A DNA stretch of 64,000 nucleotides from an uncultured Candidatus Saccharibacteria bacterium (lineage in GTDB: Bacteria > Patescibacteriota > JAQUNI01). Below, one piece after another: positions 1 through 51,230 of the stretch. The stretch spans positions 120,438 through 184,437 of the forward strand of contig CAZKRD010000002.1 in NCBI GenBank assembly GCA_964555185.1. The letters are read 5' to 3'. The notes under the pieces are model-generated. The model was not told where the DNA came from. It made no database searches and saw nothing but the letters and a program-made list of their open reading frames with translations. Numbering within the stretch: the stretch's first letter is position 1; each line of letters opens with the position of its first letter. The position numbers and the translations under genes are program-made.

Positions 1-433
1 CATAATAATAGAGTGGTTTTTTTCCTATCCTATCCCTTATTAAAAAAATTTTACCCCTTTTTTTATCATAAATACAAAAAGCAAACATGCCATTTATTTT
101 TTCGAGCAACCTGTCAATCCCCCATTCTTCATAGCCATGAATTAGTATTTCCGTATCAGTGTTAGATCTAAAGTTGTGTTTTTGATAGAGTTCTTTTTTT
201 AAGGTTTGGTAATTATAAATTTCTCCATTACACACTATCCAGATATCTCCGTTCTCATTAGACATAGGCTGATTTCCAGCTTCAGACAGATCTATAATGC
301 TTAATCTTTTGAATCCTAACCTTATTTCATTTTCTTCATATTTTCCTTGATCATCAGGCCCTCTGTGCGCAATAGATTCTAGGTTTTTTTCTATGTTTAA
401 GTTTTGTCCAATAATACCGAATATACCACACAT
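1..433 (-). CDS. Asparagine synthetase/class-II glutamine amidotransferase, N-terminal part; the gene runs off the left edge of the window
   Basis: Minus-strand translation from the ATG at 433..431 gives MCGIFGIIGQ...RDRIGKKPLYYY. The catalytic N-terminal Cys and the amidotransferase-domain motifs match AsnB. There is no stop before position 1. The ORF track omits it because it is truncated. Confidence 0.6.
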   Translation of the reverse strand, partial: MCGIFGIIGQNLNIEKNLESIAHRGPDDQGKYEENEIRLGFKRLSIIDLSEAGNQPMSNENGDIWIVCNGEIYNYQTLKKELYQKHNFRSNTDTEILIHGYEEWGIDRLLEKINGMFAFCIYDKKRGKIFLIRDRIGKKPLYYY

Positions 434-629
434 AATTTTATATTTCTGACGCCGTGCCCCTCCATCAAGGAAATTTTTAAGAGTAAAATGTTTTTTGCCT
501 CTAAAAGCCACTAAACCGCATTTCTAATATATGCATGTATCACCTTTGGGAAAAATCTAGATTTTTCTATAATGATTATTGGCATTACATAACATACATT
601 TTTTCATATATTTATTCTCAGAGAGAAGA

Positions 630-2204
630 TTAATATTGTATTCTCAACCCTTTAAGGTAGCTTTGGACATACAATTTTGCTCTACTGATCACGAGGTGGG
701 GATTTTTTCCAATTGAATTGATCGCCCATAATACTTTTTCATTTAACGGTATTTTCTTTAGCGCAAGATGGTTAAGTTCTTGTAAAACGTTTTCTAAGTA
801 ACTAAAGGGCACAGTGTCACTGAAGGAGCGAATTACATTATCTCCATTATACATAAAAAAATTCTCAAATCTTTCTTGGTTACCAATAATGTTATGCTTT
901 TTGCAAAGATTCCATACTGCCGTTCCTGGATAAGGAACGGTAAGATAAACTTGAAAGAAATCTATCTTTTTAAGATTGGTTAAAATAAATTTTTTAGTTT
1001 CTTCGATCTCCGCTTTTGTCTCTGTTATAGAGCCGATCATGAAATTGCCAAATATATTTAATCCGGCCTTTCTAGTTGTTTCAATAGCCTTCTGATTTTG
1101 GGCTACCGAAACGGTTGGTCCTTTAAGAAACTTAAGCACTCGATCAGAACCGCTCTCAAAGCCAAATTCCAATTGTCTACAACCTGCTTGTTTCATTTTT
1201 CTTAGGAGAGGGAGCGCGTTTTTGTCAAGAAAATTTACTCTTACCTGACAGGACCAGATCATTTTTTTGTGATAACCTTTTTGGATCATCGCATTACAAA
1301 GTTTTATAACGCGGTCTCTATTGGCAATAAATAAATCATCATGAAAAAAGAGGGCTTTTACACTAAGATCATTAATTAATTCATCTATTTCTTTCATTAC
1401 ATAGGGAATGGAATGGGTCCTATATTTTTTTGCGATAATGTTGCTCGCGCAAAATTTGCATTGATAAGGGCAGCCTCGTGAAGTCAGAATACTTGTGCTT
1501 CGCCGAGCAGGAAGACCCCTGATCAATTGGCGAGGCGCTAAGTAATATTCGAGGTTAAAAAGTTTACGATCGGGGGGCGGAATTTTGTCTATATCCAAAA
1601 TAAGTTCTCGCTCGAGAGTTTTAATAATTCTACCATTCTTGGTTCGAAAAGCCAGCCCCTTTATTCTTTTTAAGCTGTCCGTGTTTAATTTGCCATCTTT
1701 TTTGAGCCAGGCTGTACATAGTTCGTTGATTGTTTCTTCAGCTTCGCCCAACAGGATAACATCTATTTTGGGATAATCGCGAAGTGTGCGTTCTGGTAAA
1801 ATTGATGCATGAATACCTCCGACAATAATTAAGACATCTTTTCTTATTTTTCTCATTTTACGTACTAGCGCGCCCGTTCTGACAATTTGGGGTGTGGTCG
1901 AGCTTATACCAACAATATCTGGTTTTTTCCGAAAAAAAATCTCCAAAATAGAATCCCCTGCGTTTTCATCTGCTAAACTGATATTAATATTACCCGGGTT
2001 ATATTTTTTCAGATATGATGAGATATAGCCAATCCCGAAAGATATATATTGATGTCTGCCTCTTACCGGAATTACCAATAATAGTTTTAATTTTTTTTTC
2101 ATGGAACAGAAATTCAATTTAGTCTTTCGGAGTAATGAAGAGCTCGGGGAAGGTTTTTTTTGGAAAATGAGTTTTATGAACTCTCTTGGATTTTTGGAAT
2201 GCAT
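630..2204 (-). CDS. Class B (cobalamin-binding) radical SAM enzyme
   Basis: 524 aa. The N-terminal B12-binding-like domain includes ...VGISSTTPQ...IIVGGIHAS.... The radical SAM motif is SRGCPYQCKFCAS (CxxxCxxC). Confidence 0.75.
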   Translation of the reverse strand: MHSKNPREFIKLIFQKKPSPSSSLLRKTKLNFCSMKKKLKLLLVIPVRGRHQYISFGIGYISSYLKKYNPGNINISLADENAGDSILEIFFRKKPDIVGISSTTPQIVRTGALVRKMRKIRKDVLIIVGGIHASILPERTLRDYPKIDVILLGEAEETINELCTAWLKKDGKLNTDSLKRIKGLAFRTKNGRIIKTLERELILDIDKIPPPDRKLFNLEYYLAPRQLIRGLPARRSTSILTSRGCPYQCKFCASNIIAKKYRTHSIPYVMKEIDELINDLSVKALFFHDDLFIANRDRVIKLCNAMIQKGYHKKMIWSCQVRVNFLDKNALPLLRKMKQAGCRQLEFGFESGSDRVLKFLKGPTVSVAQNQKAIETTRKAGLNIFGNFMIGSITETKAEIEETKKFILTNLKKIDFFQVYLTVPYPGTAVWNLCKKHNIIGNQERFENFFMYNGDNVIRSFSDTVPFSYLENVLQELNHLALKKIPLNEKVLWAINSIGKNPHLVISRAKLYVQSYLKGLRIQY

Positions 2205-2234
2205 ATTAGTTTTAACATTTTTAAGTGGCGAGAA

Positions 2235-3455
2235 TCAGGAAATTTTACAAATATCCTTAGAATCCTTACTCATAGCTTTTGATAACATATTAACCCACCT
2301 TGAATCCCCCAATACTTTAAAAGTATGTAATGTATTGGGTTTAATCACAAAAATATCTCCTTTTTTTACAATAAAATCTTTTTTTAAATTAGTATTTATA
2401 TCTAGTAAGGACACCTTAATCCTGCCATCTATAATATAGAAGCCCTCTTTAGTCTTTTTATGGTAATGGTTTCCCCTTGTGCATCCTTTTAGAGACTCAA
2501 TATAATTTATTTCTTCCCACTTTTCACCTTGCATAATTCCTGTCAATTTGCCTCGACCATCAGTAAAAGAAAAATAAGGGCTGATTAAATTTCCAAAAAG
2601 ATAATGTAACGATTTTTTTACGCTGGGACAAGAATCTCCTAATATCTGCCTGCTATATCCAGTATTCAATGAACTATCTTGAGCAATTGACCCATCTAAT
2701 GGTTGCCTGCATCTCTTAATTAATGATTTGTCTTTTCCCATTACTTTAGCTACCTGAACAGCAAAATTATAACGAGAGATTTTTTTCTTGCCCGCGATAT
2801 GGATAATGCCTCTATAATCTTTATTAATTAATTTTTCTATTGAGTCAGTAAGATAGTCAATATAGGTTGGTGTATAAAAGACATCATCAAAAATATCCAC
2901 TGTTTTGTTTTGTTTCAGGCAGTCTAATAAAAAATTAAAAAAGTTTCCGCCTCTTCCGTATACATTAGCGGTGCGACAAATGATATAATTTTTCAATTCA
3001 TCTTGAATATCCTTTTCCGACATGGCTTTTGTTTTGCCATAATAAGTTTTAGGATTTGTTGTCTCACTTTCTTTGTAATTGCCTTTTTTTCCGTCAAAAA
3101 TATAGTCAGATGACATAAAAACCAGCTTTATATTGGGATTAACTTTTGCTATTGCCTTAATAAAATTTTTTGTGCCGTCAATATTAACTCTTTGGGCATT
3201 TTTTTGATCTTTTTCGCATTGAGCTAAACTACTAATGCCAGCTGCGTGGATTATTATCTTAGGATGAACTTTTTTAACAATATCCAATACTGCTTTGATG
3301 CTGGTAATGTCTAATTTATAGGTCTTTTCTTTTTTAGATTGATTTAAAGTTGAAGCATAAATATCATAATTATTATCATTCTGCAGCTTTTGTCTTAAGT
3401 TGGATCCAATGTAACCATCAGCTCCGGTAATTAATATTGTTTTTTTGTTTTCCAT
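2235..3455 (-). CDS. Fused NAD-dependent sugar epimerase/reductase (N-terminal) and cupin (C-terminal) domains; a sugar-nucleotide modifying enzyme
   Basis: The N-terminus has the Rossmann motif ILITGADGYIGSNL and an RmlD/epimerase-like fold, including YGKTK. The C-terminal ~130 aa look like an RmlC/FdtA-type cupin (HYHKKTKEGFYIIDGRIKV...). Confidence 0.55.
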   Translation of the reverse strand: MENKKTILITGADGYIGSNLRQKLQNDNNYDIYASTLNQSKKEKTYKLDITSIKAVLDIVKKVHPKIIIHAAGISSLAQCEKDQKNAQRVNIDGTKNFIKAIAKVNPNIKLVFMSSDYIFDGKKGNYKESETTNPKTYYGKTKAMSEKDIQDELKNYIICRTANVYGRGGNFFNFLLDCLKQNKTVDIFDDVFYTPTYIDYLTDSIEKLINKDYRGIIHIAGKKKISRYNFAVQVAKVMGKDKSLIKRCRQPLDGSIAQDSSLNTGYSRQILGDSCPSVKKSLHYLFGNLISPYFSFTDGRGKLTGIMQGEKWEEINYIESLKGCTRGNHYHKKTKEGFYIIDGRIKVSLLDINTNLKKDFIVKKGDIFVIKPNTLHTFKVLGDSRWVNMLSKAMSKDSKDICKIS

Positions 3456-3469
3456 AATTTATAAAGTTT

Positions 3470-4903
3470 TTATTTATTATTAGGTTTAGACATTTTAATA
3501 GAATAAGCTAATATTTTTTTAGTTGCTGTCAACAAGCCCTCTCTTTTGATTTCGCTTGTTATAAAAAAACCTAATGTCTTTGGCTTTTTGAACAATACAT
3601 GTCTATACCACATCTTCCAGCCCAAATGAAACATTTCCTCAATTTTATTTGCTGGATAATCCAGATATGAGACCGCGCTTTTTCCAGTTGCATCAAAATA
3701 ACCAGGATCTTCAGAGATTAGCCATCCGTTTGTCTTCGCCTTTTTGTAAAATGTCGTACCAGGATAGGGTGTGGCAATAGCTATTTGGACAAGATCAGGA
3801 TTTGCGGCAATAACATCTTGTAACATCTGGTAATCCTTCTTCCACGTTGATTTACACAAACCGACCATCAAATTGACATAAGATTTCATCCCTAATTTTT
3901 TACATTGCTTAATAATTTCTAAAAGCCTTTCTCTTTTCAAGGGCTTTGGAATTGCCTTCAAAACATCTTGATCTAAATGTTCTAAGCCATATTTGTAAGT
4001 CACACATCCCGCCCTGGCCAGAAGTTCCAATGTTTCGTCATCCACTAAGCCGTCACCCATACATAGCCACTTCACTTTTAGTTTTCTGTTCATTATTTCT
4101 CCACAGATCCCATCTATATGTTTTTTGCTAGAGACCATATTATCGTCATCAAAATAAATTTCGTCAAATTTATATTTTTTTTGTAAATATTCCATCTCAT
4201 CCACTACGCTCTTGGCACTCCTCATACGGTAGACGTGTTTTCCGTAAAAGGATTCTACATTGCAGAAGCTGCACTTAAGACGGCAGCCCCTTGATGAAAC
4301 CATAATAATATTTCTGCCGTAGCAAGAAGGCTCATTATAATATTCAATCGGGGTATCATCTCTTTCGGGGAAAGGCAACAAATCTAAATCCGTAACTAAA
4401 TCAGGTTTATCATATTTTCTTTTTTGTGCGCTGATGAAATTCTTAGGGAGAATTTTACGATCAGATTTAAAAAATTCCAAAAGAGAAAATTCGTATTCAC
4501 CAACAATAGAATAATCAACCCGTGTTTTTTTTAAACACTCAAAAGGGTAATTTGTCGCGTAATTACCCACAGCTATTTTTTTAATATTTTTATCAACTGA
4601 ATCAAGTAACCTTTTATCATCTTCTACGCTAATCCATGTTGGTTCACAGACAATATGAGTTGGTTTAATTTTTTCTATAAAATCAATTGTTTTCTCAAAA
4701 CTCCATTTCATAGCCACTGCATCTTTGAAAACAGCATCAAGTCCATTCCTTTTTAATAAAGATGTTGTATATCCCATAAACCACGGATAGGGATAATATC
4801 TTAAAACGGCAGATCCCTCTTTGGTGGTGTTATACCATCTTGATCCGGACTTTAATACTAAACCCGGTAAATTAAGTATGAGTATTTTGTGCATTTGAAT
4901 CAA
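3470..4903 (-). CDS. Class B (cobalamin-binding) radical SAM enzyme
   Basis: 477 aa. The motif SSRGCRLKCSFCNV is a CxxxCxxC. An N-terminal B12-binding-like region is present. Its architecture matches the 630..2204 protein. Confidence 0.75.
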   Translation of the reverse strand: MIQMHKILILNLPGLVLKSGSRWYNTTKEGSAVLRYYPYPWFMGYTTSLLKRNGLDAVFKDAVAMKWSFEKTIDFIEKIKPTHIVCEPTWISVEDDKRLLDSVDKNIKKIAVGNYATNYPFECLKKTRVDYSIVGEYEFSLLEFFKSDRKILPKNFISAQKRKYDKPDLVTDLDLLPFPERDDTPIEYYNEPSCYGRNIIMVSSRGCRLKCSFCNVESFYGKHVYRMRSAKSVVDEMEYLQKKYKFDEIYFDDDNMVSSKKHIDGICGEIMNRKLKVKWLCMGDGLVDDETLELLARAGCVTYKYGLEHLDQDVLKAIPKPLKRERLLEIIKQCKKLGMKSYVNLMVGLCKSTWKKDYQMLQDVIAANPDLVQIAIATPYPGTTFYKKAKTNGWLISEDPGYFDATGKSAVSYLDYPANKIEEMFHLGWKMWYRHVLFKKPKTLGFFITSEIKREGLLTATKKILAYSIKMSKPNNK

Positions 4904-4919
4904 TTTTTTAGAAAACTAA

Positions 4920-6137
4920 TTATATAATGCAATCGGACAGATTTTTAGTAAGTAATTTATTAATATCTATGGTTTTGACAAACTCTTTGATATTAGCTTG
5001 ATACTCCTTCTGGAGATTTTCATCCAAAATAAATCTTTTTATTACCTTGATGATTTCATCTTTTTTATTATTAACCGCCAAGCAAACTCTCTTCTTACCT
5101 AATTCTTGAACAATGGCTGGAACCTTGGAAGCAATAGTTGGTATTCCAAAGCTTAAATAATATTTCACCTTGGCTGGTTCAGTGTATTTCATAAAATTTT
5201 CTTCATCTTTGTACAAAGCTACTCCTAAAATATTATTCACCATAAGTTTTGTGAATTTTTTTCCCTCTTCCACAAATCCATGAAAAATAATATTTTTTTC
5301 TAAACCTAATTTTTTTGCCAATTTTTTAAAATACTCTTCGTCCGGGCCACTGCCAATCAAGTTTAATTTGATTTTTTTAAATTCTTTTGCGAGTTCAAGA
5401 ACCACACTAAATAATAGATCAAGTAGATGATATCTATTTATGACGCCGCAATACACCAAAGAGAACTTATTATTCTCATTAATCGGCTTAGAAATAAATT
5501 TTTTCACATCTATCCCTAGAGGAATAATTTGATAGTCATGTTTACGGCGATCAAAATACCCGTATTTTTCTCTACCAATTATATGGCCTAGGGTGGTAAA
5601 CCAGATTGAATCGCTATTATTTAAACAAAATTGATCAATAATATAAAACACCCTATTTAAATATCTATATATACCCGCTGGTGGTAAAGGAAAAAAATCC
5701 ATTACGCGATAGATAACAAAATCAACTTTCCCTAACTTTTTTAGGATTAATCCACACAAGGTGCAAAAATAGTTGACCCCCATAAAGATCCTCTTCTTCC
5801 GCCTTGGCCTTTTCCGCAATAGAATAAGTGCTTGAGATAAATAAATAAGATAATTTAACGGTAGAAACAAAAAATACAAAAATTTATTATCAAAAACAGG
5901 TATTGAAAAGATAACTCTCTCGGATACCTTTGATTTATCTCTATAATGAATTAACGAAGAATGCATTCCCCCTTTACTATGGGGAAATTTCCATTTAAGG
6001 TAGGTAAAGTCAGCAAAATTATTAATAAAGTAACTGACATAGTTTTCTAACCCAACCGGCACAAATGAACAAAATAATAGACTGTTTTTTTTGTCCATAG
6101 TATTGCTTTTTATATTTCCAGCTTTTCCAAAGAACAT
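4920..6137 (-). CDS. Glycosyltransferase, family 1 (GT4-like)
   Basis: 405 aa. The C-terminal GT1 signature is ...LVYCGVINRYHLLDLL...IGSGPDEEY...FHGFVEE.... Confidence 0.55.
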   Translation of the reverse strand: MFFGKAGNIKSNTMDKKNSLLFCSFVPVGLENYVSYFINNFADFTYLKWKFPHSKGGMHSSLIHYRDKSKVSERVIFSIPVFDNKFLYFLFLPLNYLIYLSQALILLRKRPRRKKRIFMGVNYFCTLCGLILKKLGKVDFVIYRVMDFFPLPPAGIYRYLNRVFYIIDQFCLNNSDSIWFTTLGHIIGREKYGYFDRRKHDYQIIPLGIDVKKFISKPINENNKFSLVYCGVINRYHLLDLLFSVVLELAKEFKKIKLNLIGSGPDEEYFKKLAKKLGLEKNIIFHGFVEEGKKFTKLMVNNILGVALYKDEENFMKYTEPAKVKYYLSFGIPTIASKVPAIVQELGKKRVCLAVNNKKDEIIKVIKRFILDENLQKEYQANIKEFVKTIDINKLLTKNLSDCII

Positions 6138-27470: not shown

Positions 27471-28367
27471 TCATTTCGCTCCATGTAATTCCCGATTTCT
27501 GACTAGAGTACTCGCTCGATACAGGGTTTCGGTGATTCCGGCGTCAGTCCACCAGCCGCGGAGGACTTCATATTCCATTAATCCTTTCTTAATATAGTGA
27601 TTATTCACATCAGTAATTTCTAATTCTCCTCTCTCGGAAGGTTTTAAGGTTTTAATTATATCATAAACCCGGCTGTCATACATATAAATACCAGTTACTG
27701 CTAGGTTGGATTTTGGATTTTTTGGTTTCTCCTCAATGCCAACTACTTTACCGTCTTTGATTTCGGCAACGCCGAAGCGCTCTGCGTCAGGCACTTCTTT
27801 CAGGAAGATTCGGGCGCCGCCCTTTTGTTCTTGGAATTTTCGGACCGCTTCCCCAATATTATCTTCAAAGATATTATCTCCCAAAATCACGACAACTTTC
27901 TGGTTATCTGCGAAATTTTTAGTCAAACCTAAAGCTTCGGCAATCCCGCCCGATCCTTGTTGATAGCCGTATTGGAGTTCTTTTAATCCAAATTCCTTGC
28001 CATTACCTAAGAGACGTAAAAAGTCGCCCGGATTATTGCCGCCAGTTACGATCATCACTTTCGAAATTCCTGCTTGGCTTAAAGTTTCCAAGGGGTAATA
28101 AATCATTGGCTTGGTGTAGATCGGCAGAAGGTGTTTGTTGGTCACCTTAGTTGCCGGCAAAAGCCGGGTGCCTGTTCCGCCAGCTAAAATAATCCCTTTG
28201 ATCTCTTGGCCAGCCTCTTCTTTGCGCGATTCCTCTGAACGTAAACGATCGTATTCGGCCATTCCCATCACCACGGTTTTTTCGCCATCATCCCCAATGA
28301 TGATGTGGGTCTTGTTCGTTTTTTTCGTAAGACCCGCGATTTTTCGTGAATTTTTTTTATTAAGCAT
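27471..28367 (-). CDS. rmlA: Glucose-1-phosphate thymidylyltransferase-family sugar nucleotidyltransferase (short form)
   Basis: GIILAGGTGTRLLP nucleotide-binding motif, followed by a ~240-aa catalytic core. The ~55-aa N-terminal extension in the track ORF may be a mis-set start. Confidence 0.7.
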   Translation of the reverse strand: MLNKKNSRKIAGLTKKTNKTHIIIGDDGEKTVVMGMAEYDRLRSEESRKEEAGQEIKGIILAGGTGTRLLPATKVTNKHLLPIYTKPMIYYPLETLSQAGISKVMIVTGGNNPGDFLRLLGNGKEFGLKELQYGYQQGSGGIAEALGLTKNFADNQKVVVILGDNIFEDNIGEAVRKFQEQKGGARIFLKEVPDAERFGVAEIKDGKVVGIEEKPKNPKSNLAVTGIYMYDSRVYDIIKTLKPSERGELEITDVNNHYIKKGLMEYEVLRGWWTDAGITETLYRASTLVRNRELHGAK

Positions 28368-28409: not shown

Positions 28410-29804
28410 TTAGTTTAGGTACTCTTCTAACGCTTCTTCCCATCTCCGCAGTTTCGGCAGCTTGGTATTGATTAAAACCGAACACAAGGGCCGCTTTGCT
28501 TTTGTCTCGTATTCCCGGCTGCTGATTGGCTTTATTTTAACCGGAATGTTTTTCAAAGCGAAAATTTTGCGCGCGAACTGATACCAATTAGTTTTTCCTT
28601 GGTTTGTGACGTGATAAATGCCAAAGGGCTTGTTTTGTTCAATAAGCTGTTTTGTCTCTCGAGCTAAATCACGGGCAAAGGTAGGCTTCCCCCACTGGTC
28701 ATTGACGACCTTCAGTTTAACATTGCTTTTTGATAATTGCAACATTTTTTTAACAAAATTTTCTCCTCTCTTGCCAAACATCCAAGAGCTGCGGATTAGG
28801 TAGTATTGATCAGTATTGCGCCGCAAGAGCGCCTCGCCCAAGAACTTTGATTTTCCATAGACATTGATTGGGTTGGGCTGGGCGGTTTCTTTATAACCCT
28901 TGCGATTTTTACCGTCAAAGACATAATCCGTGGAGTAGTGGACTAAAGTTGCGTTTATTCTTTTGGCAATTTGCGCTAAATACCCTACCGCTTTACCATT
29001 TATCCGCAAAACCTGCTTTTGGTTTGATTCGGCCCTTTCTACGTTAGTATAGGCAGCAGCGTTGATAATGATTGCTGGTTTAAGTTCCAGGATTCTTTGC
29101 TGTAGTTTTTTCTTGTTGGTAATATTTAATTTTTTCTTGTCCCAGGCGGTTAGCCTGTAGTTTTGAAATTCTTTTTTTAAGCACGAGCCAAGCATGCCTC
29201 GGGCGCCCAAGATCAAGACTTTTTTTTGAAAATTTGCAAGCAGTTTGTTGCGCGCCCGCACCAAGTCAGGATGGAGCCCCCTCTCTTTTTTGATAATCTG
29301 TTTCATATTTTCATCAAAAGCATTAAGCAGGGCTTGGTCTAGAGATTTGGAAGCTATTTTCAGGATGATTTTTGAGCCAGCCCAAATTTTGGGAGTGGGC
29401 GCGATAATATCCGAGAGATAAATAATTTTATCCAGGAAACTCATACAGGGTTTAGGCACGCAGTGCCTCTCAATTGCTTGGAGGATTTCTTTGTCGTGAA
29501 TGCCAAACTTTTTTCTAGAAAGGGATGCGCCGACAGGCGCATGGAGAAGGCTTGGATGGTTTTTGGTAAAGGAATCAATTTTGATCCGAAATTTGCAAGC
29601 GAGTTTCAAAAGTCTTTCTGAATTTAAATCACGCGCCATATCATGGATCAGGCCGGCAAGACGGACTTTTTCTAGGTTGATCCCTTTGTGGATCCGGGCC
29701 AATTTCTCCGCTGTTTTTACTACTTCCAAACTATGAAAAAATCTATCCCTCGATAGATTCCGCTGCAGGTAAGATTTGATTCTTTCTAGGTTTAAATCAT
29801 TCAT
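28410..29804 (-). CDS. rmlD: Fusion of a YqeK-type HD hydrolase (N-terminal) with dTDP-4-dehydrorhamnose reductase (C-terminal)
   Basis: N-terminal ~190 aa: HSLEVVKTAEKLA...AGLIHDMAR...IERH (YqeK/HD family). C-terminal: VLILGARGMLGS...YSTDYVFDG...NVYGKSK...DQWGKPT (RmlD). Confidence 0.7.
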   Translation of the reverse strand: MNDLNLERIKSYLQRNLSRDRFFHSLEVVKTAEKLARIHKGINLEKVRLAGLIHDMARDLNSERLLKLACKFRIKIDSFTKNHPSLLHAPVGASLSRKKFGIHDKEILQAIERHCVPKPCMSFLDKIIYLSDIIAPTPKIWAGSKIILKIASKSLDQALLNAFDENMKQIIKKERGLHPDLVRARNKLLANFQKKVLILGARGMLGSCLKKEFQNYRLTAWDKKKLNITNKKKLQQRILELKPAIIINAAAYTNVERAESNQKQVLRINGKAVGYLAQIAKRINATLVHYSTDYVFDGKNRKGYKETAQPNPINVYGKSKFLGEALLRRNTDQYYLIRSSWMFGKRGENFVKKMLQLSKSNVKLKVVNDQWGKPTFARDLARETKQLIEQNKPFGIYHVTNQGKTNWYQFARKIFALKNIPVKIKPISSREYETKAKRPLCSVLINTKLPKLRRWEEALEEYLN

Positions 29805-29837: not shown

Positions 29838-29997
29838 ATTAATTTTCAATTTTCAAATCCCAATTTTCAATCAAATCCCAATTTTCAAATAGATTTAATT
29901 TTCAAACCTGCGAAAATGGTTTTGTTTGAAAATTTATTCATTGGTTATTGAAAATTGATTAGTAAATTGGTACTTGAAAATTGAAAATTAACTACTC
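29838..29997. repeat. MITE-like AT-rich intergenic repeat, copy A (inverted relative to copies B and C)
   Basis: The reverse complement begins GAGTAGTTAATTTTCAATTTTCAAGTACCAAT..., which is identical to the start of copy B. Internally it consists of AATTTTCAA/TTGAAAATT words. Confidence 0.7.
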
Positions 29998-30992
29998 TAT
30001 TTATGCTTATATTGCTTTCGATAGTATTTAAGATATTCTCCCGACTTGATCTTCTTCCACCACCATTCATTCTCTTTGTACCATTCTATGGTTTGCCGCA
30101 TCGCTTCTCCAAATTGATATTGCGGCTGCCAGCCCAGTTTCTGAACCTTAGTAGAATCCAGGGCGTAACGGCGATCATGACCCGGCCGGTCGGAAACCCG
30201 CTTAATCATTTCTTTGCCTTTGCCCAAAGTCTTCAAGATTAGATTGGTGATGTAAAGATTGGTTTTTGGATTATCACCGCCAATATTATAAATCTCCCCT
30301 ATTTTGCCTTTGTGGAGAACAAGATCTAAGGCAGAGCAGTTATCTAAAACATAAATCCAATCACGGACATTTTTGCCATCACCGTAAAGCGGCACCTTTT
30401 TTCCTTCAATGAGATTGGTGACGAAAAGAGGGATTAGTTTTTCCGGGTATTGATAAGGCCCAAAATTATTAGAGCTTCTCGTGATCAAAACCGGCAAACC
30501 AAATGTGCGGTGATAAGCGCGGACCATCAAATCCCCTCCTGTTTTGGAAGCAGAATAGGGATTGTTGGGAGCAAGCTCGGTTTTTTCAGTTGCTTTTCCG
30601 CGAGCCAGACTGCCGTAAACTTCATCCGTGCTTACCTGTAAATATTTCTTAATTTTGAATTCTTTTACTGCTTCCAATAAGTTTTTCGTGCCCAAGATGT
30701 CTGTGCGAATAAAGTCATCCGCGCCCATAATTGAGCGATCCACATGGGTTTCTGCAGCGAAGTTTACAATCATATTCACATTGCGAGCCGCTTGTTTCAC
30801 TGTTTTCCAATCCGCGATATCTCCTTTGACAAATTTATAGCGCGGGGTTTTGATCCCCCGTAGATTGTCTAGATTGCCGCAGTAAGTCAGTTTGTCTAAA
30901 TTAACCACGCGGTAGCGCGGGTATTTTTTTAAAATATAGCGGATGAAGTTGGAACCGATAAAACCCGCGCCGCCGGTTACGAGTAATTTCAT
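29997..30992 (-). CDS. rmlB: dTDP-glucose 4,6-dehydratase
   Basis: LVTGGAGFIGSNF, YSASK, 331 aa, classic RmlB. Confidence 0.85.
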   Translation of the reverse strand: MKLLVTGGAGFIGSNFIRYILKKYPRYRVVNLDKLTYCGNLDNLRGIKTPRYKFVKGDIADWKTVKQAARNVNMIVNFAAETHVDRSIMGADDFIRTDILGTKNLLEAVKEFKIKKYLQVSTDEVYGSLARGKATEKTELAPNNPYSASKTGGDLMVRAYHRTFGLPVLITRSSNNFGPYQYPEKLIPLFVTNLIEGKKVPLYGDGKNVRDWIYVLDNCSALDLVLHKGKIGEIYNIGGDNPKTNLYITNLILKTLGKGKEMIKRVSDRPGHDRRYALDSTKVQKLGWQPQYQFGEAMRQTIEWYKENEWWWKKIKSGEYLKYYRKQYKHK

Positions 30993-31546
30993 AATATTTT
31001 TTTGTGGAGACAGTATTTATAAAGGAGGGCTAGAGTTGGTGAACCGATAATCTTATTTTCGATAATCATTTTTTGGATCTCTTTAAGACTAAATTTTTTT
31101 ACTTCCGAGATTTCAGAAGGATCGGGAATTTTATCAATTTTTTTTAAGTCTTGAGCAAGATAAATATAGGAATATTGCGGCAAGACAGTTCCTGATACAT
31201 AGGAGATGCCAATTTTGGTCCACTTTTGAGCAGAAAGGCAAGCTTCTTCCTCGAGTTCCCTTTTGGCGGCATTCAGATAGGTTTCTCTTTTTGAATCTTT
31301 GTGTCCCATGGGCAATTCCCAGGTATATTCCCCCAAAGTGTAGCGATACTGACGGACAAGCCAGAGTTTTCCATTTCTGTCTTCAGGGATGATTGCGACA
31401 AAGGGATCTTTTTTAATATAGTAATAGTTTGTTTTGCGTCCTAAAGGGTTCAACACCTGGTCCTTGTAAAGATCAAGATAAGCGCAGTGGTAGATCCGGC
31501 GAGAGGAAATTTTTTGCCAAGGCTGTTTTTGATGGATTTTCGGCAT
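30989..31546 (-). CDS. NUDIX hydrolase (sugar-nucleotide/ADP-ribose pyrophosphatase-like)
   Basis: NUDIX box ...GHKDSKRETYLNAAKRELEEEA... Its stop overlaps the rmlB start by 4 nt. Confidence 0.6.
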   Translation of the reverse strand: MPKIHQKQPWQKISSRRIYHCAYLDLYKDQVLNPLGRKTNYYYIKKDPFVAIIPEDRNGKLWLVRQYRYTLGEYTWELPMGHKDSKRETYLNAAKRELEEEACLSAQKWTKIGISYVSGTVLPQYSYIYLAQDLKKIDKIPDPSEISEVKKFSLKEIQKMIIENKIIGSPTLALLYKYCLHKKIL

Positions 31547-31603: not shown

Positions 31604-31778
31604 GAGTAGTTAATTTTCAATTTTCAAGTACCAATGTACTAATCAATTTTCAATTTACAAGTACCAATTTTCAATCAATTTTCAATAACCAATGACTAAA
31701 TGTTCAAACTGTTTGAAAATTAAATCATTGAACCTTAGGATTTGATTGAAAATTGAGATTTGTAAATTGAAAATTAAT
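31604..31778. repeat. MITE-like AT-rich intergenic repeat, copy B
   Basis: About 125 bp are ~95% identical to copy C and form an inverted match to copy A. It lies between the rmlC stop and the NUDIX start. Confidence 0.7.
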
Positions 31779-31784
31779 ATCCTC

Positions 31785-32240
31785 TTATCCCATCTTAATC
31801 CCCCAACCATACGGAACCAGTTCAGTATCATAAGGCAGGCGGTATTCATCTGGTTTCTCTGGATTGTAGGGATGGGTTGGCGTATTGATGATTAGAGCTT
31901 CTTCTTCGGACACGCATTTCCAGCCGTGATAAACCTGTTTTGGGATTTGAATTAAACTCGGATTGTGCTCGCCGATAAAAAATTCATTGATTTCTCCCAA
32001 AGTCCGGGATCCGATCCTGCCGTCATAGAGGACAAGCTTGATCATGCCGCGCAGGCAGCAAATAGAATCGGTTTGGACTTTATGCAGATGCCAAGCCTTA
32101 ACCACGGAAGGGTAAGTGGTCGTTAAATAGACTTGACCGAATTTCTCGAAGATTTCATCATCAGAGCGCAGGATCTCCATCACCCGGCCCCGTTCGTCAG
32201 GATGAATTTTAAGTTTTTTAGTTTTGACGCCGGAAATCAT
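31785..32240 (-). CDS. rmlC: dTDP-4-dehydrorhamnose 3,5-epimerase-family cupin (short form)
   Basis: 151 aa. ...AWHLHKVQTDSICCLRGMIKLVLYD... is an RmlC-like cupin core. Confidence 0.6.
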   Translation of the reverse strand: MISGVKTKKLKIHPDERGRVMEILRSDDEIFEKFGQVYLTTTYPSVVKAWHLHKVQTDSICCLRGMIKLVLYDGRIGSRTLGEINEFFIGEHNPSLIQIPKQVYHGWKCVSEEEALIINTPTHPYNPEKPDEYRLPYDTELVPYGWGIKMG

Positions 32241-33411
32241 GATATTTAAAAGATTTAAGAAGGGCTTTAGGATTTTTCGTTTCCACCCCGCCTTTTTTTA
32301 GAAGTAAAGTCTGGTAGAGCCTTATTGTCTGATTTGCAACTTTATTCCAATTATAGAACTTGCGGACTCTTTCGCGAGCCAGCCGCCCCATTTTGAGAAC
32401 CAGTTCGGGGTGGTCATTTAGAAATTCCAGTCCCTTTTTAAGGCTCGCTACACTCCTTGACTTAAAGCTATAACCCGCTTCGCCCATCGCTTCTTTGTTT
32501 TCCGGAATATCTGAAACTAAAACACAACGGCCAAAACCCAAGGCCTCAAGCAGACTTAAAGACAGGCCCTCTGCTTTTGATGGTAGCACATAAAGGTAAG
32601 CATTGGAAAATAATTCGAGGAGGGTTTCCCCTTGCTGACTGCCGGTAAAGATAATATTAGGATTGCCTTTTGCTGTTTTTTTAAGATAATTTTCATAGGC
32701 TCGATTGCCAAGATTGCTGCCGCCAACAATAACCAGTTTCTTGTTCGTATTTAATTTTTGGAAAGCATTGATTAAATAGTGAATCCCTTTGCGCGGAACC
32801 AGCCGCGAAACAGTTAGGAAATAATTGTTTTCAGAGAGTCCCCATTTTTTGATTAGTTTTGCCCGCTTGGAACGAGCAAGTGCGGCTCCGTTGGGGATAT
32901 AATAGATTTGACTTTTGGCCGGATTATTTTTTCGGCAGTATTGGTAAAGAATTCTGGAAACAACAATTGTCGCGTCAGGAAGTAAAACCACGGTTTTTTC
33001 AGCCAGAGTTAAAAAGAAGCGAGCGAGGATTCCCCATTTTTGATCAAAACAGTCGCGGCACTGAAAAGTTGTGATTGTGACTGCTTTCCTCTTTAGGATC
33101 CGAGGAATAAAAGCAAGCAGAGAAGGGCCCACCGAATGGATATGGACAACATCCACTCTTTTAAACAAAACATGAATAAGAGAGAAAAAAGTATGGGTAA
33201 TCGTGTCTAAATTCTTTGTGGGAATCGAAGGGGTATAGATTATATCGATTCCTTTGTATTTTTTTCTTTTGCTTTTGGTGTATTTATGCCGAGAGTAAAC
33301 AAAAATTCTGTGTCCTCTTTGGACCAGTTTTTTGGCTAATTCTTCAACATGCCGCTCTACTCCGCCTTCGCGGCAGGGAATCCCTTTTGCTCCAATTATC
33401 GCTATTTTCAT
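32218..33411 (-). CDS. Glycosyltransferase family 1
   Basis: C-terminal GT-B motif ...VLPSKAEGLSLSLLEALGFGRCVLVSD.... Confidence 0.7.
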   Translation of the reverse strand: MKIAIIGAKGIPCREGGVERHVEELAKKLVQRGHRIFVYSRHKYTKSKRKKYKGIDIIYTPSIPTKNLDTITHTFFSLIHVLFKRVDVVHIHSVGPSLLAFIPRILKRKAVTITTFQCRDCFDQKWGILARFFLTLAEKTVVLLPDATIVVSRILYQYCRKNNPAKSQIYYIPNGAALARSKRAKLIKKWGLSENNYFLTVSRLVPRKGIHYLINAFQKLNTNKKLVIVGGSNLGNRAYENYLKKTAKGNPNIIFTGSQQGETLLELFSNAYLYVLPSKAEGLSLSLLEALGFGRCVLVSDIPENKEAMGEAGYSFKSRSVASLKKGLEFLNDHPELVLKMGRLARERVRKFYNWNKVANQTIRLYQTLLLKKGGVETKNPKALLKSFKYHDFRRQN

Positions 33412-33550: not shown

Positions 33551-34765
33551 TCAAATTATTAATAGTTTTTTATAGACTTTCGTTAATTTTTTATAATAAG
33601 CTTCTGGGTCGTATTTTTTAATTTCTGCCTTTGCTCTTTGCCCTATTTTTTGGGTCAATTTTGGATTGTGAAAGAGGTATTGGATTTTTTTTCTTAATTC
33701 ATCTCGATTTTCAAAAAGCAGACCGTCTTTCCCTTGTTCAATCAGTTCAGGCAGAGCTCCTCTCGCGCTTGCGACTACGGTTTTTCCTAAATTGAATGCC
33801 TCTAGAACAGCAAGGCCAAAAGTTTCTTCGCTCATGCTGGGTACAACCACAAAACAAGAATTCGCAATCAGTTTTTTTAATTCTTTTTCGTTTTTAAAAC
33901 CCAAAAATTCTACATTAGAAATATTTTTCTGGGCAACCGTCTTGATTAACCTATTTTTGTCTGGACCTTTGCCCGCTATTTTGAATTTAATCCAAGGGAG
34001 CTCTAAAGCTGTCGAAATTAAAAGATCCAGTCCCTTTTCCGAGGCAAGCCGGCCAAAATAGAGAACATAATCTTTTTTTCTATTTTGGGCCGCTATTTTT
34101 GCTGGCTTTATAAAATGCGGCAGGACAATTAATTTGTTTTCTGACATTCCCCAGGCAGTTAGTTTGTTTTTTACAAATTGACTGGGACAGATAAAAATAT
34201 CGACATATTTCTGATAAAAACAAAAAGTTTTGTGGAGATACATCTCGAGTGAACTTAGAAGGGAGGCAAAATAAGAATCTTTGACGCATTTATTTAAAAA
34301 GCATTGATAGTATTTATGTTGTTTGCATTTCTCGCAAACCTGACCTTTGTTAAATAATTTGTAATTTGGACAAATCAATTTGTAGTCATGGACAGTCATC
34401 ACAATCGGAATATTATTCTTTTTTAAAATTCCTAAAATAGAGGGTGAAATCTGATGATAGATATTGTGGATATGAGCAATGCCTGGTTTTTCTTTTTTGA
34501 TTAATTTTTTAATTTTTTTGCGTGCTTCTAGAGAATAAAGGATTCGGGCTGCGTTTTTTAGAGCTTTTAGAGAGAATCTAACTCTTTTTAAATTCATTTC
34601 ACTGACAAAATATTCTTGATAGGCAGATGAAATATTTTTTTTACCTTCCATTGCAAAAGGAATCACAGTGTGGCCGCGCGCTTCTAGTAATTCTGTTAAA
34701 TCAAAATAATGACGGTCTGATCCGCCCTGGATGTGATGGAATTTATTGATATTCAAGATGATCAT
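33551..34765 (-). CDS. Glycosyltransferase family 1
   Basis: ...VVVPSMSEETFGLAVLEAFNLGKTVVAS... (EX7E-like). Confidence 0.7.
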   Translation of the reverse strand: MIILNINKFHHIQGGSDRHYFDLTELLEARGHTVIPFAMEGKKNISSAYQEYFVSEMNLKRVRFSLKALKNAARILYSLEARKKIKKLIKKEKPGIAHIHNIYHQISPSILGILKKNNIPIVMTVHDYKLICPNYKLFNKGQVCEKCKQHKYYQCFLNKCVKDSYFASLLSSLEMYLHKTFCFYQKYVDIFICPSQFVKNKLTAWGMSENKLIVLPHFIKPAKIAAQNRKKDYVLYFGRLASEKGLDLLISTALELPWIKFKIAGKGPDKNRLIKTVAQKNISNVEFLGFKNEKELKKLIANSCFVVVPSMSEETFGLAVLEAFNLGKTVVASARGALPELIEQGKDGLLFENRDELRKKIQYLFHNPKLTQKIGQRAKAEIKKYDPEAYYKKLTKVYKKLLII

Positions 34766-34774
34766 ATTTTAAAA

Positions 34775-35662
34775 CTATGTTTTCCTGTATTTTAAATAAA
34801 GCTTGGTTCCGCTCAAGAATTTAATCAAATGGAAGCTAAGATTATGTTTGGGGTAATGTTTTTTCCAAAAGTAAAGCAAGCTTTTTCTTTCATGAAGTTT
34901 TGGGATAAAAGAGTTTCTCGAGGAGGCTTTGTGTTTATGAATCACTTGGGTTTTGCCCCAAAAGATAATCTTAAATCCTGCTTTCTTTACTCTTTTGCAG
35001 AAATCAATGTCTTCGAGATACATAAAATATCTAGGATCAAAGAGGCCAACTTTGTCAAAGACAGATCTGCGGATGAAAGGACAGGTTCCAGAGAGCCATT
35101 TTACTTCTCTCATCTGATAGAATTTTTTCCGAGTTAAAATATTGGGCATAATGATTCTGCCCCAAGGAAGGATCTTGTAAAGCAGTGTAGCCTGCAAGAT
35201 CTCAGATAAAAGAGAAGGGTAATTGCCAAAATTAGTTTGCAGTTTTCCGCCCGGGTAAACAAGGCGCGGTGAAAGGATAGCGACATCAGGATTTTGATCT
35301 AAGAATTTCAAAGTGCGTAGTAAAGATTTATTCACAAAAGCATCTGTATTGAGAAGCAAAACATATTCACCGCGCGCTTTCCGAATTCCTTGGTTGACAG
35401 CTCGAGCAAAGCCACGATTTTTTTTGTTAACAATTAACTTTACTTTAGGGAAATGTTTTTTAATAAGTAGAACAGACTCATCTTCTGAATTGTTATCAAT
35501 TAAAATAATCTCGTGTTTTATTTCAGAAAATGAAGAATAGACCCTTTCTAAACACTTTAGAGTTAATCTAGCTGTATTGTAACTTGGGATGATGACAGAA
35601 AGTTGCATTATTTTTTTGCTAAGAATCTGTTTTGGACTAAAAGCAGTCCCACAATATACCAA
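34775..35662 (-). CDS. Glycosyltransferase family 2
   Basis: SVIIPSYN, IDNNSEDES, and DxD in LLNTDAF. Confidence 0.7.
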   Translation of the reverse strand: MVYCGTAFSPKQILSKKIMQLSVIIPSYNTARLTLKCLERVYSSFSEIKHEIILIDNNSEDESVLLIKKHFPKVKLIVNKKNRGFARAVNQGIRKARGEYVLLLNTDAFVNKSLLRTLKFLDQNPDVAILSPRLVYPGGKLQTNFGNYPSLLSEILQATLLYKILPWGRIIMPNILTRKKFYQMREVKWLSGTCPFIRRSVFDKVGLFDPRYFMYLEDIDFCKRVKKAGFKIIFWGKTQVIHKHKASSRNSFIPKLHERKSLLYFWKKHYPKHNLSFHLIKFLSGTKLYLKYRKT

Positions 35663-36969
35663 AAGATAATTCCGTAATAGAGTCCGACTAGTGTGACCTC
35701 TAAAAGAGCATTGATTAAAACTATGATCATGGTTGAGACAAAGCCAAGGTACAGAATTTTATCGTTTTGCTCTTTGGCCAAGGCTTTCATCTTTTTAAGT
35801 TCACGGTAAATTTGACGGATAATCAGGATTAAAATTGCTAAACCAATAAGACCGAGTTCTAAAACTATTTGCAAAAAGAAATTATTGCTTTCACTCTCGA
35901 TAGACCAGGGTAAAAGATTTTTATACTCCAATTTTAAATTGCCAACCCCATATCCTAAAATGGGTTTTTGAAAGAAGAGCTTGAAGGCCACTTTGCCTTC
36001 GGTTATTCTAAAGTTTGTATTTGGATCACTAGCTGTATTATAGATTCTTTCTAAAAGTTTTCTGCTATAAGAAGCAAGGGGGAAAGCAATGAGGAGCAGA
36101 ATAACAATTAAGATAACAAGAGCTAAAAGTTTTTGAATCTTTTGTTTGGTGAAGAAATAGGAAAGACCAGAGAGTGCGGCAATAATTTCTCCTTTGCCTA
36201 AAGTGAGAGCAGAAGCAGTAAATCCTAAAACTATTTGTAAAGAAAGAATAATCTTTAACCATATTTTTTTAGTGTTGAGGGCAAGTGCATAGGTTAAAGG
36301 CAAGGTTAGAATAATCACAGCCGCGATGTAAACCCATCTGCCCACTGGGGTTATGATCCATTCTCGAGCAATAGTATAGTTTCCATTAAATCCACCTAAA
36401 GAAGCAACCTTGGAAATTAGTTGAATTGAAACCAAGAATCCAGTTAAAGGCAGACTGTAAAGAGCAATTTTAAGATCTTTTTTGGTTCTAACGAGGTTAA
36501 TAATTAAGAACAGAATAGCAAGGTGAAAAAGTAAAGCACGAATTGCGATCAAAGCTCGAGAAAGGTTATGAGCCCAGCCCAAAGATAAGACAGCAAGAGC
36601 AAGATAAAGGATTAAGATCACAAGAAGAAAAGGAAACTTTATTTCTCTAATTTTTCTGCGGGTCAGGATTTGTAAAACAAAGAGAACAGAGATTAGAATG
36701 ATTAAAATTTCTCCCAAAGTAATCTCATAATACCAATCCCTAATTCTTAAAGTGGTCACCTGGCCAAAAATAATTGTTGGCAGGATTAAGGCCAAGATTA
36801 AGGCCGGTTTTTTCAAATAAAGAAAAATAGAAAGTAAAAAACCAGCAAGTATAGCTAAAAGTAACAGCAGAGCCTGCCATTCCCCGCTTTGGTAATAACA
36901 AAACAGAGGCATAAAGATACCAAAGAAGAGAATTAAAAGAGACAAGATGATTATTTTTTTAGTTCTCAT
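35608..36969 (-). CDS. O-antigen ligase/polymerase-like polytopic membrane protein (Wzy/WaaL family)
   Basis: 453 aa, 10 or more TM helices, with a larger periplasmic loop near the C-terminal third. It sits in the glycan locus. Confidence 0.5.
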   Translation of the reverse strand: MRTKKIIILSLLILFFGIFMPLFCYYQSGEWQALLLLLAILAGFLLSIFLYLKKPALILALILPTIIFGQVTTLRIRDWYYEITLGEILIILISVLFVLQILTRRKIREIKFPFLLVILILYLALAVLSLGWAHNLSRALIAIRALLFHLAILFLIINLVRTKKDLKIALYSLPLTGFLVSIQLISKVASLGGFNGNYTIAREWIITPVGRWVYIAAVIILTLPLTYALALNTKKIWLKIILSLQIVLGFTASALTLGKGEIIAALSGLSYFFTKQKIQKLLALVILIVILLLIAFPLASYSRKLLERIYNTASDPNTNFRITEGKVAFKLFFQKPILGYGVGNLKLEYKNLLPWSIESESNNFFLQIVLELGLIGLAILILIIRQIYRELKKMKALAKEQNDKILYLGFVSTMIIVLINALLEVTLVGLYYGIIFWYIVGLLLVQNRFLAKK

Positions 36970-51023: not shown

Positions 51024-51230
51024 TAGTTAATTTTCAATTTTCAAGTACCAATGTACTAATCAATTTTCAATTTTCAAGTACCAATTTTCAATCAATTTTC
51101 AATAACCAATAACTAAATGTTCAAACTGTTTGAAAATTAAATCTATTTGAACCTTCGTCCCGAGCTCAGGTCGAGGGAAATTATGATTTGATTGAACATT
51201 GGTCCTTGTAAATTGGTAATTCAAACAATA
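51024..51230. repeat. MITE-like AT-rich intergenic repeat, copy C, carrying a nested GC-rich hairpin insertion
   Basis: It shares ~125 bp with copy B. The element is interrupted at 51152..51180 by CGTCCCGAGCTCAGGTCGAGGGAAATTA and resumes with GATTTGATTGAA.... Confidence 0.7.

Follow-up and report, generated by a model that had tools for sequence, protein, structure and literature searches.

A YqeK-type HD domain fused to the dTDP-4-dehydrorhamnose reductase RmlD in the rml gene cluster of a Candidatus Saccharibacteria bacterium

In a 64,000-nucleotide stretch of contig CAZKRD010000002.1 (positions 120,438 to 184,437; GenBank assembly GCA_964555185.1) from an uncultured Candidatus Saccharibacteria bacterium, the whole of which is referred to here as the window, a single gene encodes a YqeK-type HD phosphohydrolase and the dTDP-rhamnose pathway enzyme RmlD in one polypeptide. 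This locus raises the question whether such a fusion is genuine and, if it is, what the hydrolase half does in a dTDP-sugar gene cluster. The original prediction, made from the sequence alone, had reported the fusion and, for the hydrolase, offered recycling of dTDP or dTMP, action on a nucleotide-sugar by-product or regulation of the pathway as possible roles. The fusion itself was confirmed, and the HD half may serve the dTDP-sugar pathway. The gene and its parts, with the ratio of non-synonymous to synonymous substitution rates (dN/dS) for the two domains, are as follows.

28410..29804, minus strand: whole fusion gene, taken from the list of open reading frames; 464 codons plus stop, ATG start
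29247..29768, minus strand: YqeK-type HD phosphohydrolase domain, residues 13-186; TIGR00488; match to PDB entry 3CCG; dN/dS 0.20
29223..29246, minus strand: domain junction, residues 187-194 (KLLANFQK); no flexible linker; holds most of a run of eight adenines (A8)
28413..29222, minus strand: RmlD (dTDP-4-dehydrorhamnose reductase) domain, residues 195-464; TIGR01214; dN/dS 0.12

In the 464-residue protein, Pfam places an HD domain (PF01966) at residues 21-135 with E = 6e-14 and RmlD_sub_bind (PF04321) at residues 195-463 with E = 1e-88. The NCBIfam equivalog for YqeK, TIGR00488, scores 120.3 bits against a cut-off of 70.15 over residues 13-186, which correspond to positions 1-172 of the 173 in the profile, and the rmlD equivalog TIGR01214 scores 299.8 bits against a cut-off of 224.05 over residues 195-464 (profile positions 1-283 of 285). 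Both models also match every one of the 15 members of the fusion clade described below at E ≤ 1e-10. Searched against the sequences in the PDB, the HD half retrieved 3CCG (E = 1e-32), 2O08, 8JJA, 8WMY and 2OGI, which are solved YqeK structures. The N-terminal segment of about 190 residues is thus a significant, full-length homologue of YqeK, as had been proposed, and the matches lie far beyond chance, which disposes of the concern that the similarity might not be significant. The assignment of the C-terminal half as a canonical RmlD likewise holds, on the profile score above the cut-off and on the modelled fold described below.

The motifs YSTDYVFDG and YGKSK of RmlD occupy residues 290-298 and 316-320, respectively. 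The glycines G200, G203 and G206 of the GxxGxxG motif, T292 of STDYVF, and Y316 and K320 of YGKSK are invariant in the 15 sequences, and T292, Y316 and K320 correspond to the catalytic Thr, Tyr and Lys whose roles are established in RmlD and in short-chain dehydrogenase/reductase (SDR) enzymes. The C-terminal domain would be expected to reduce dTDP-4-dehydro-L-rhamnose to dTDP-L-rhamnose with NAD(P)H.

An obvious objection is that two genes were merged by a +1 error, or are split and joined by slippage, in the A8 homopolymer. This run (29220-29227) sits at the domain boundary (ttt caa aaa aaa gtc ttg atc), and with seven adenines in place of eight a TGA would close the HD frame and overlap a TTG, a possible start of RmlD, which is the pattern typical of two overlapping genes. 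A deletion of one nucleotide in the run would restore two overlapping genes here, making it a potential hotspot for phase variation or sequencing error.

The homologues speak against this objection. Among 5.8e9 proteins searched, 14 further clusters of HD plus RmlD proteins were found, drawn from independent samples in JGI, ENA, Logan and NCBI; their proteins are 460-493 residues long and 61-91% identical at 100% coverage, and from rank 15 onward the matches are stand-alone RmlDs of about 275 residues. All 15 aligned fusion sequences, each from an independent cluster, are collinear with zero indels at the junction (RNKLLENFxKK[IV]L[IL]LG). At the DNA level, the fusion was followed in five independent loci, i.e. 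the window and those designated L001, L002, L005 and L089. The A8 run is common to the window and L001 and is absent in homologues at 65-69% identity: the junction codons are GAG AGA AAA GTT in L002 (65% identical) and AGT AAA CGG ATA in L005 (69% identical), both in frame and free of homopolymers. The -1 frame of L001, where the A8 run is also present, lacks an immediate stop, hence a slippage product is not conserved. No in-frame start codon lies between the HD domain and the GxxGxxG motif in L002, which excludes independent translation of RmlD there.

These features of L001 and L002 rule out programmed slippage and separate translation of RmlD. The frameshift artefact, which the original prediction had named as the outcome that would overturn it, is refuted by the collinear homologues together with the homopolymer-free junctions, and we consider it extremely improbable. 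Comparison of the window with L001 gave a dN/dS of 0.20 in the HD domain and 0.12 in RmlD, values similar to those of RmlB (0.08) and of a Nudix gene in the same cluster (0.18). The fusion is therefore real and inherited, with both halves under purifying selection. NCBI, ENA and Logan also record the identical protein, encoded on a 355-kb contig. Judged from the gene sequences, RmlD would be made solely as part of the fusion in the clade as sampled.

An AlphaFold2 model of the protein, built from an alignment of 85 sequences, has a mean predicted local distance difference test (pLDDT) score of 96 and a predicted template modelling (pTM) score of 0.93 for the whole chain. The last helix of the HD domain (residues 179-192) leads directly into strand β1 of the Rossmann fold (residues 195-199) with pLDDT 98, and the least confident region is the substrate loop at residues 131-150. 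In a Foldseek comparison with the PDB, the HD half superimposes on 3CCG with a template modelling (TM) score of 0.93 and a root-mean-square deviation of 1.3 Å; the HD half of a first, lower-confidence model had matched 8JJA, 8WMY and 2OGI at TM 0.85-0.87. The RmlD half matches 1VL0 (TM 0.94, 1.1 Å), 3SC6 (0.93, 1.5 Å) and GacA 4WPG (0.90, 1.5 Å). No solved PDB chain covering both halves was found by Foldseek, the maximum query-normalised TM being 0.57. Because the pTM is so high for a two-domain chain, the model implies a defined inter-domain arrangement, in which the two domains would form one fixed body.

The active site of the HD half was assessed by mapping its residues in the 15 fusion proteins against 67 stand-alone YqeKs plus 2O08 and 3CCG. 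Residue roles were taken from GtYqeK crystallised with ADP and with an Ap4A (diadenosine tetraphosphate) analogue (PMC13627108), and those of the metal ligands also from S. pyogenes YqeK (PMC11857287). The GtYqeK metal ligands H21, H50, D51, H83, H109 and D127 correspond to H24, H54, D55, H88, H114 and D132 of the window protein, and all six are kept in 15 of 15 fusions. The phosphate-binding R18 is R21 in the fusion (kept in 14 of 15), and the K54 position is occupied by R58, Arg being found there in 32 of the 67 stand-alone proteins too. R133, which together with R18 is essential for Ap4A binding (PMC13627108), is Arg in 67 of 67 stand-alone YqeKs; the corresponding residue is Lys (K139) in every fusion protein (15/15) and is accompanied by a one-residue insertion (PTPK versus PG-R). 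The phosphate triad R18/K54/R133 has thus kept its charge in the fusion and changed its geometry.

The residues that read the nucleotide are also altered. The hydroxyl group of T175 hydrogen-bonds the buried adenine (PMC13627108); Thr or Ser is present at this position in all 67 stand-alone sequences and in 2O08 and 3CCG, and Leu (L181) in all 15 fusions. The distal base is sandwiched by F135 and F163, which are jointly essential (PMC13627108). The F135 position carries Trp in 11 of the 15 fusions and a non-aromatic residue in the other four, and the F163 position His, Tyr, Gln, Asn, Ser or Glu. In three fusion proteins (P0011, P0012 and P0014) the loop just before the K139 and W141 positions is six residues shorter. 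From the intact metal centre, the HD half may be taken to be a catalytically competent binuclear-metal hydrolase. Since the T175 to Leu and R133 to Lys replacements are themselves invariant in the clade, they have the signature of a new constraint, not of drift; an intact metal centre with nucleotide-reading residues that were replaced and then fixed indicates, as far as residue conservation can tell, such a constraint rather than decay.

The original prediction held this architecture to be non-standard and called for a survey of other genomes. A filter-free hidden Markov model search with the 15-sequence profile was made against 1.84e9 representatives clustered at 50% identity, and the best 150 were examined. 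Exactly one of these (P0014, 866 bits) matches across residues 1-464. Those at ranks 2-150 (386-262 bits) match the RmlD part only, and the few longer proteins among them extend C-terminally, not N-terminally. The HD-RmlD architecture is thus a single 50%-identity cluster among the 1.84e9 representatives, with no independent recurrence in the best 150, although a distant fusion scoring below about 262 bits could escape. A scan of GTDB species representatives gave, among the matches listed (at least 600), stand-alone RmlD genes only and is uninformative on absence. No HD-RmlD fusion was found in the searchable literature. The architecture is non-standard, as claimed, and confined to one narrow Parcubacteria/Doudnabacteria clade of the candidate phyla radiation (CPR). 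Named carriers are Parcubacteria bacterium LiPW_72, a Patescibacteria bacterium and a Candidatus Doudnabacteria bacterium, and public annotation describes the fusion proteins only as dTDP-4-dehydrorhamnose reductase. Two tblastn hits that had seemed to extend into the N-terminal half, L025 (query residues 63-463) and L021 (query residues 145-463), were rejected; each proved to be an ordinary RmlD of 286-287 residues with an unrelated upstream gene.

The gene order Wzy-GT2-GT4-GT4-RmlC(151 aa)-Nudix-RmlB-[HD-RmlD]-RmlA-UDP-glucose dehydrogenase, where GT denotes a glycosyltransferase, is conserved in the five loci. Two fusion-less relatives, L014 (a Patescibacteria metagenome-assembled genome) and L006, have RmlC-Nudix-RmlB-RmlD with nothing between RmlB and RmlD. 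Given this HD-less order in related clusters, the HD module was inserted into a pre-existing rml operon. An unfused neighbour state, with a yqeK gene near a stand-alone rmlD, was seen in none of 80 genome loci and not in the window.

The nearest stand-alone YqeKs are 35-45% identical to the fusion HD domain, the named ones being from Firmicutes, and sit in NadD-YqeK-LytR/CpsA/Psr-RsfS contexts. The statement that YqeK is normally encoded beside nadD is exemplified by L087, where the order is NadD-YqeK-LytR. The fusion HD domain is not beside nadD or rsfS and lies between rmlB and rmlA in 5 of 5 independent loci. In L086 (685-2541), L087 (5389-7838) and L088 (5247-7132), yqeK is followed by a LytR-CpsA-Psr gene for a cell-wall glycopolymer ligase, and RsfS comes next in L086 and L088; a link of yqeK to cell-envelope glycopolymer genes recurs in these three loci outside the fusion clade. 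The 15 fusion HD domains are monophyletic in a neighbour-joining tree, on a stem of 0.12, where the median for internal branches is 0.023. Most simply, a yqeK-like gene was captured once between rmlB and rmlD, became fused to rmlD and then diverged. The gene contexts suggest a Firmicutes-like donor from outside the CPR.

Stand-alone YqeK, a Mn-dependent homodimer, performs symmetrical cleavage of Ap4N and also decaps Np4-RNA. Of the two nucleosides, one is buried and read specifically and the other loosely stacked; the enzyme is promiscuous towards Ap4N, and a crystal structure with dTMP bound is available (8JKP). In the NadD-YqeK protein of JCVI-Syn3A, the YqeK domain hydrolyses the wrong-nucleotide analogues of nicotinic acid adenine dinucleotide made by its partner, and also 8-oxo-GTP (bioRxiv 10.1101/2021.12.01.470718).

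With this background, we favour, at a probability of roughly 0.45, the reading that the protein is bifunctional and that its HD half would be an active nucleotide-pyrophosphate hydrolase of shifted specificity serving the dTDP-sugar pathway; we infer the catalytic activity, the shift and the pathway link alike. The HD domain would hydrolyse a phosphoanhydride bond in a nucleotide-polyphosphate conjugate, the canonical YqeK reaction being Np4N to two nucleoside diphosphates (NDP). The module was inserted between rmlB and rmlD of an RmlC-Nudix-RmlB-RmlD-RmlA operon and joined to RmlD without a linker. Its substrate pocket was then remodelled, with the adenine-bonding Thr becoming an invariant Leu and a phosphate-binding Arg becoming Lys with a one-residue insertion, and the preferred substrate would have moved away from adenine-anchored Ap4N.

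Service to the dTDP-sugar pathway is proposed because of the insertion site in the rml operon. There, the module could act as a housecleaning or proofreading hydrolase for the thymidylyltransferase and dTDP-sugar pathway, clearing mis-made or dead-end conjugates, e.g. Np4dT or a wrong NDP-X from a promiscuous RmlA, and returning NDP or the nucleoside monophosphate. CPR bacteria rely on nucleotide salvage, and such salvage by the HD module would be valuable to them. The earlier suggestion that the HD half acts on a nucleotide-sugar by-product is plausible, though unproven, in view of the altered contacts and, by analogy, of the NadD-YqeK precedent; for a regulatory role, which had also been suggested, no support turned up. 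A more specific form of the proposal, in which L181, K139 and the remodelled distal loop have re-specialised the YqeK module as a dedicated proofreading and salvage hydrolase for dTDP-sugars, held as a rigid unit with RmlD, is possible but rather unlikely. Thymidine-containing Np4dT, or wrong NDP-hexoses produced by RmlA, might be among the substrates of a module so changed.

Several points weigh against a pathway-coupled hydrolase. The fusion arose once, in one narrow clade, and no independent recurrence backs a functional coupling. The partner of the HD domain is a reductase, not RmlA, the supposed source of by-products. By profile score the domain is still a YqeK equivalog, the Arg to Lys change is conservative, about half of the stand-alone YqeKs have Arg at the K54 position, and the canonical enzyme tolerates any distal base. 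The 67 stand-alone YqeKs are the nearest relatives from a word-limited search with the HD half only, which did not return the fusions themselves and gives a non-exhaustive list. A pTM derived from 15 fusion sequences may overstate the rigidity of the protein. There is no second YqeK within the 64-kb window, the range in which other Ap4N hydrolases were also checked.

In a plainer explanation, nearly as likely as the pathway-coupled one, the HD half is the general Ap4N hydrolase and Np4-decapping enzyme of the cell and the fusion is a neutral accident of genome compaction that brings co-expression and no link to dTDP-rhamnose. Ap4N is made wherever aminoacyl-tRNA synthetases exist, so that all such cells need a hydrolase for it (PMC13627108). 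The full-length match to the YqeK equivalog, the intact metal centre and R18, and a predicted fold superimposable on solved Ap4A hydrolases all fit this explanation, as does the single occurrence of the fusion; and the usual neighbours of yqeK, namely nadD, lytR and rsfS, are not obviously tied to its substrate either. It accounts less well for the replacement of two contacts that are invariant in the 67 stand-alone proteins by residues that are in turn invariant in the fusion clade, for a variable distal-base loop, part of which is deleted in P0011, P0012 and P0014, and for the long stem branch of the clade. A precise insertion into an existing rml operon and a linkerless junction that is confidently packed in the model also sit uneasily with an accident.

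An HD half that is no longer mainly enzymatic, and is instead a dimerisation or scaffold module or a nucleotide-sensing regulator of RmlD, would agree with the homodimeric state of stand-alone YqeK, with the rigid packing against RmlD in the model and with a substrate loop (about residues 131-150) that is variable and least confidently predicted. We regard it as improbable, since the six metal ligands, R21 and K139 show little or no variation among HD domains that are only 50-92% identical to one another, the dN/dS of this half is 0.20, and an intact binuclear metal site would be superfluous in a scaffold. The hydrolase coupled to the dTDP-sugar pathway remains our preferred explanation.

Comparison with known systems places the fusion among them. 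With stand-alone YqeK (COG1713/TIGR00488; PDB 3CCG, 2O08, 2OGI, 8JJA and 8WMY), an Ap4N hydrolase of Firmicutes, the HD half shares the fold, the six ligands and R18. It differs in being fused to RmlD in an rml operon instead of standing beside nadD and rsfS, in the clade-wide changes of R133 to Lys with an insertion and of T175 to Leu, in distal-base aromatics that are only partly kept, and in an identity of at most 45%. The closest parallel in organisation is the NadD-YqeK of mycoplasmas (PRK07152; JCVI-Syn3A_0380), in which a YqeK domain likewise shares a polypeptide with an enzyme of nucleotide-conjugate metabolism, and positions 185-353 of the PRK07152 profile, its YqeK part, align with the fusion HD half at 100.7 bits. 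However, the partner here is the reductase RmlD and not a nucleotidyltransferase, RmlA having its own gene 42 nt downstream; the HD domain forms the N-terminal part here and the C-terminal part in NadD-YqeK; and proofreading is suggested here by analogy.

The C-terminal half resembles canonical RmlD (TIGR01214; 1VL0, 3SC6, GacA 4WPG and 1KBZ) in sequence, motifs and fold, and in its complete rmlA/rmlB/rmlC/rmlD setting with a rhamnosyltransferase-like glycosyltransferase. It differs from canonical RmlD in having no start codon of its own (L002) and in carrying a 194-residue N-terminal hydrolase module that is absent from the solved structures and from other clusters. Gmm/WcaH is the Nudix GDP-mannose hydrolase of the colanic-acid cluster. 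That cluster too includes a nucleotide-pyrophosphate hydrolase inside a sugar-nucleotide operon, and the operon described here has a Nudix gene of its own; the HD hydrolase differs in belonging to the YqeK family, in being fused to a pathway enzyme and in being additional to the Nudix protein.

The genes next to the fusion gene in the window are listed below.

27471..28367, minus strand: rmlA (glucose-1-phosphate thymidylyltransferase); TIGR01207 254 bits over residues 57-291, below the equivalog cut-off of 360
29997..30992, minus strand: rmlB (dTDP-glucose 4,6-dehydratase), directly upstream of the fusion gene; TIGR01181 464 bits against a cut-off of 365
30989..31546, minus strand: Nudix hydrolase (NudE-like); PF00293 E = 5e-14; best NCBIfam model NudE, 52.8 bits, below cut-off
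31785..32240, minus strand: RmlC-like cupin of 151 residues; PF00908 (dTDP_sugar_isom) E = 5e-13; TIGR01221 31 bits against a cut-off of 156
32218..33411, minus strand: GT4 glycosyltransferase; NF046071 109 bits, below cut-off; best named relative rhamnosyltransferase Cps2T

The rmlA gene is syntenic in L001, L002, L005 and L089. The Nudix gene, between rmlC and rmlB, shares 4 nt with rmlB, its stop overlapping the rmlB start; its position is syntenic across all fusion loci, and it occurs in the HD-less L014 and L006 as well. Together with the HD module, it gives the operon two encoded nucleotide-pyrophosphate hydrolases. The cupin gene overlaps the upstream GT4 gene by 23 nt, and its product is presumed, from its family match, to be a divergent and minimal dTDP-4-dehydrorhamnose 3,5-epimerase. 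The GT4 enzyme is a likely consumer of dTDP-rhamnose, given its best named relative.

In RmlA, an N-terminal extension of 56 residues (28200-28367) precedes the thymidylyltransferase profile. Its pattern KTHIII..G...VVM...EY.RL is conserved in L001, L002 and L005, and it has a weak, sub-threshold match to the Phd/YefM antitoxin (E = 0.039). With this extension, the operon may contain a second unusual fusion.

Elsewhere in the window, the gene at 2238-3458 (minus strand) encodes a 407-residue protein with an RmlD-type SDR domain (PF04321, 187 bits) and a C-terminal cupin (PF14667/Cupin_2). It is a CapF/WbjC-like reductase-epimerase, not RmlD, and represents a second sugar-nucleotide fusion enzyme in the window. 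As the only other PF04321-type protein in the window is thus CapF-like, the fusion protein is the RmlD of the cluster.

An intergenic repeat motif, CAATTTTCAA, occurs in 15 copies as compared with 1.2 expected and a maximum of 4 in shuffled sequences. All copies lie in three clusters (29839-29991, 31607-31780 and 51035-51102), two of which are the spacers between rmlB and the fusion gene and between rmlC and the Nudix gene. The copies in these two spacers form long imperfect palindromes, in which arms of 28 nt are 93% complementary and arms of 68 nt 78%. The spacer is missing in L002, where rmlB and the fusion gene overlap, hence the CAATTTTCAA element is a lineage-specific insertion resembling a repetitive extragenic palindrome or a miniature inverted-repeat transposable element. 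No tRNA or tmRNA genes were detected in the 64-kb window, and the GC content is about 0.40 over most of it and 0.32-0.35 at 1-6000 and 34001-36000.

The HD-RmlD protein is a new architecture of two well-known families, rare and confined to one narrow CPR clade. It corrects public records in which these proteins are called simply dTDP-4-dehydrorhamnose reductase, and it contributes to the view of cell-surface sugar synthesis in salvage-dependent CPR bacteria. YqeK is now viewed mainly as a Gram-positive Ap4A "alarmone" hydrolase and RNA decapping enzyme, and for its linkage to NadD proofreading is the sole experimental explanation so far. A second, independent fusion of YqeK to a nucleotide-conjugate pathway, with nucleotide-reading residues changed clade-wide, offers a concrete and cheap test, which would show whether YqeK domains are pathway-attached metabolite-repair modules and which residues determine base specificity in them. 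Should the HD half be a plain Ap4N hydrolase, this is one more ordinary lineage-specific gene fusion. If it has indeed been re-specialised, then, taken with NadD-YqeK, YqeK would be a general plug-in error-correction module for nucleotidyltransferase pathways.

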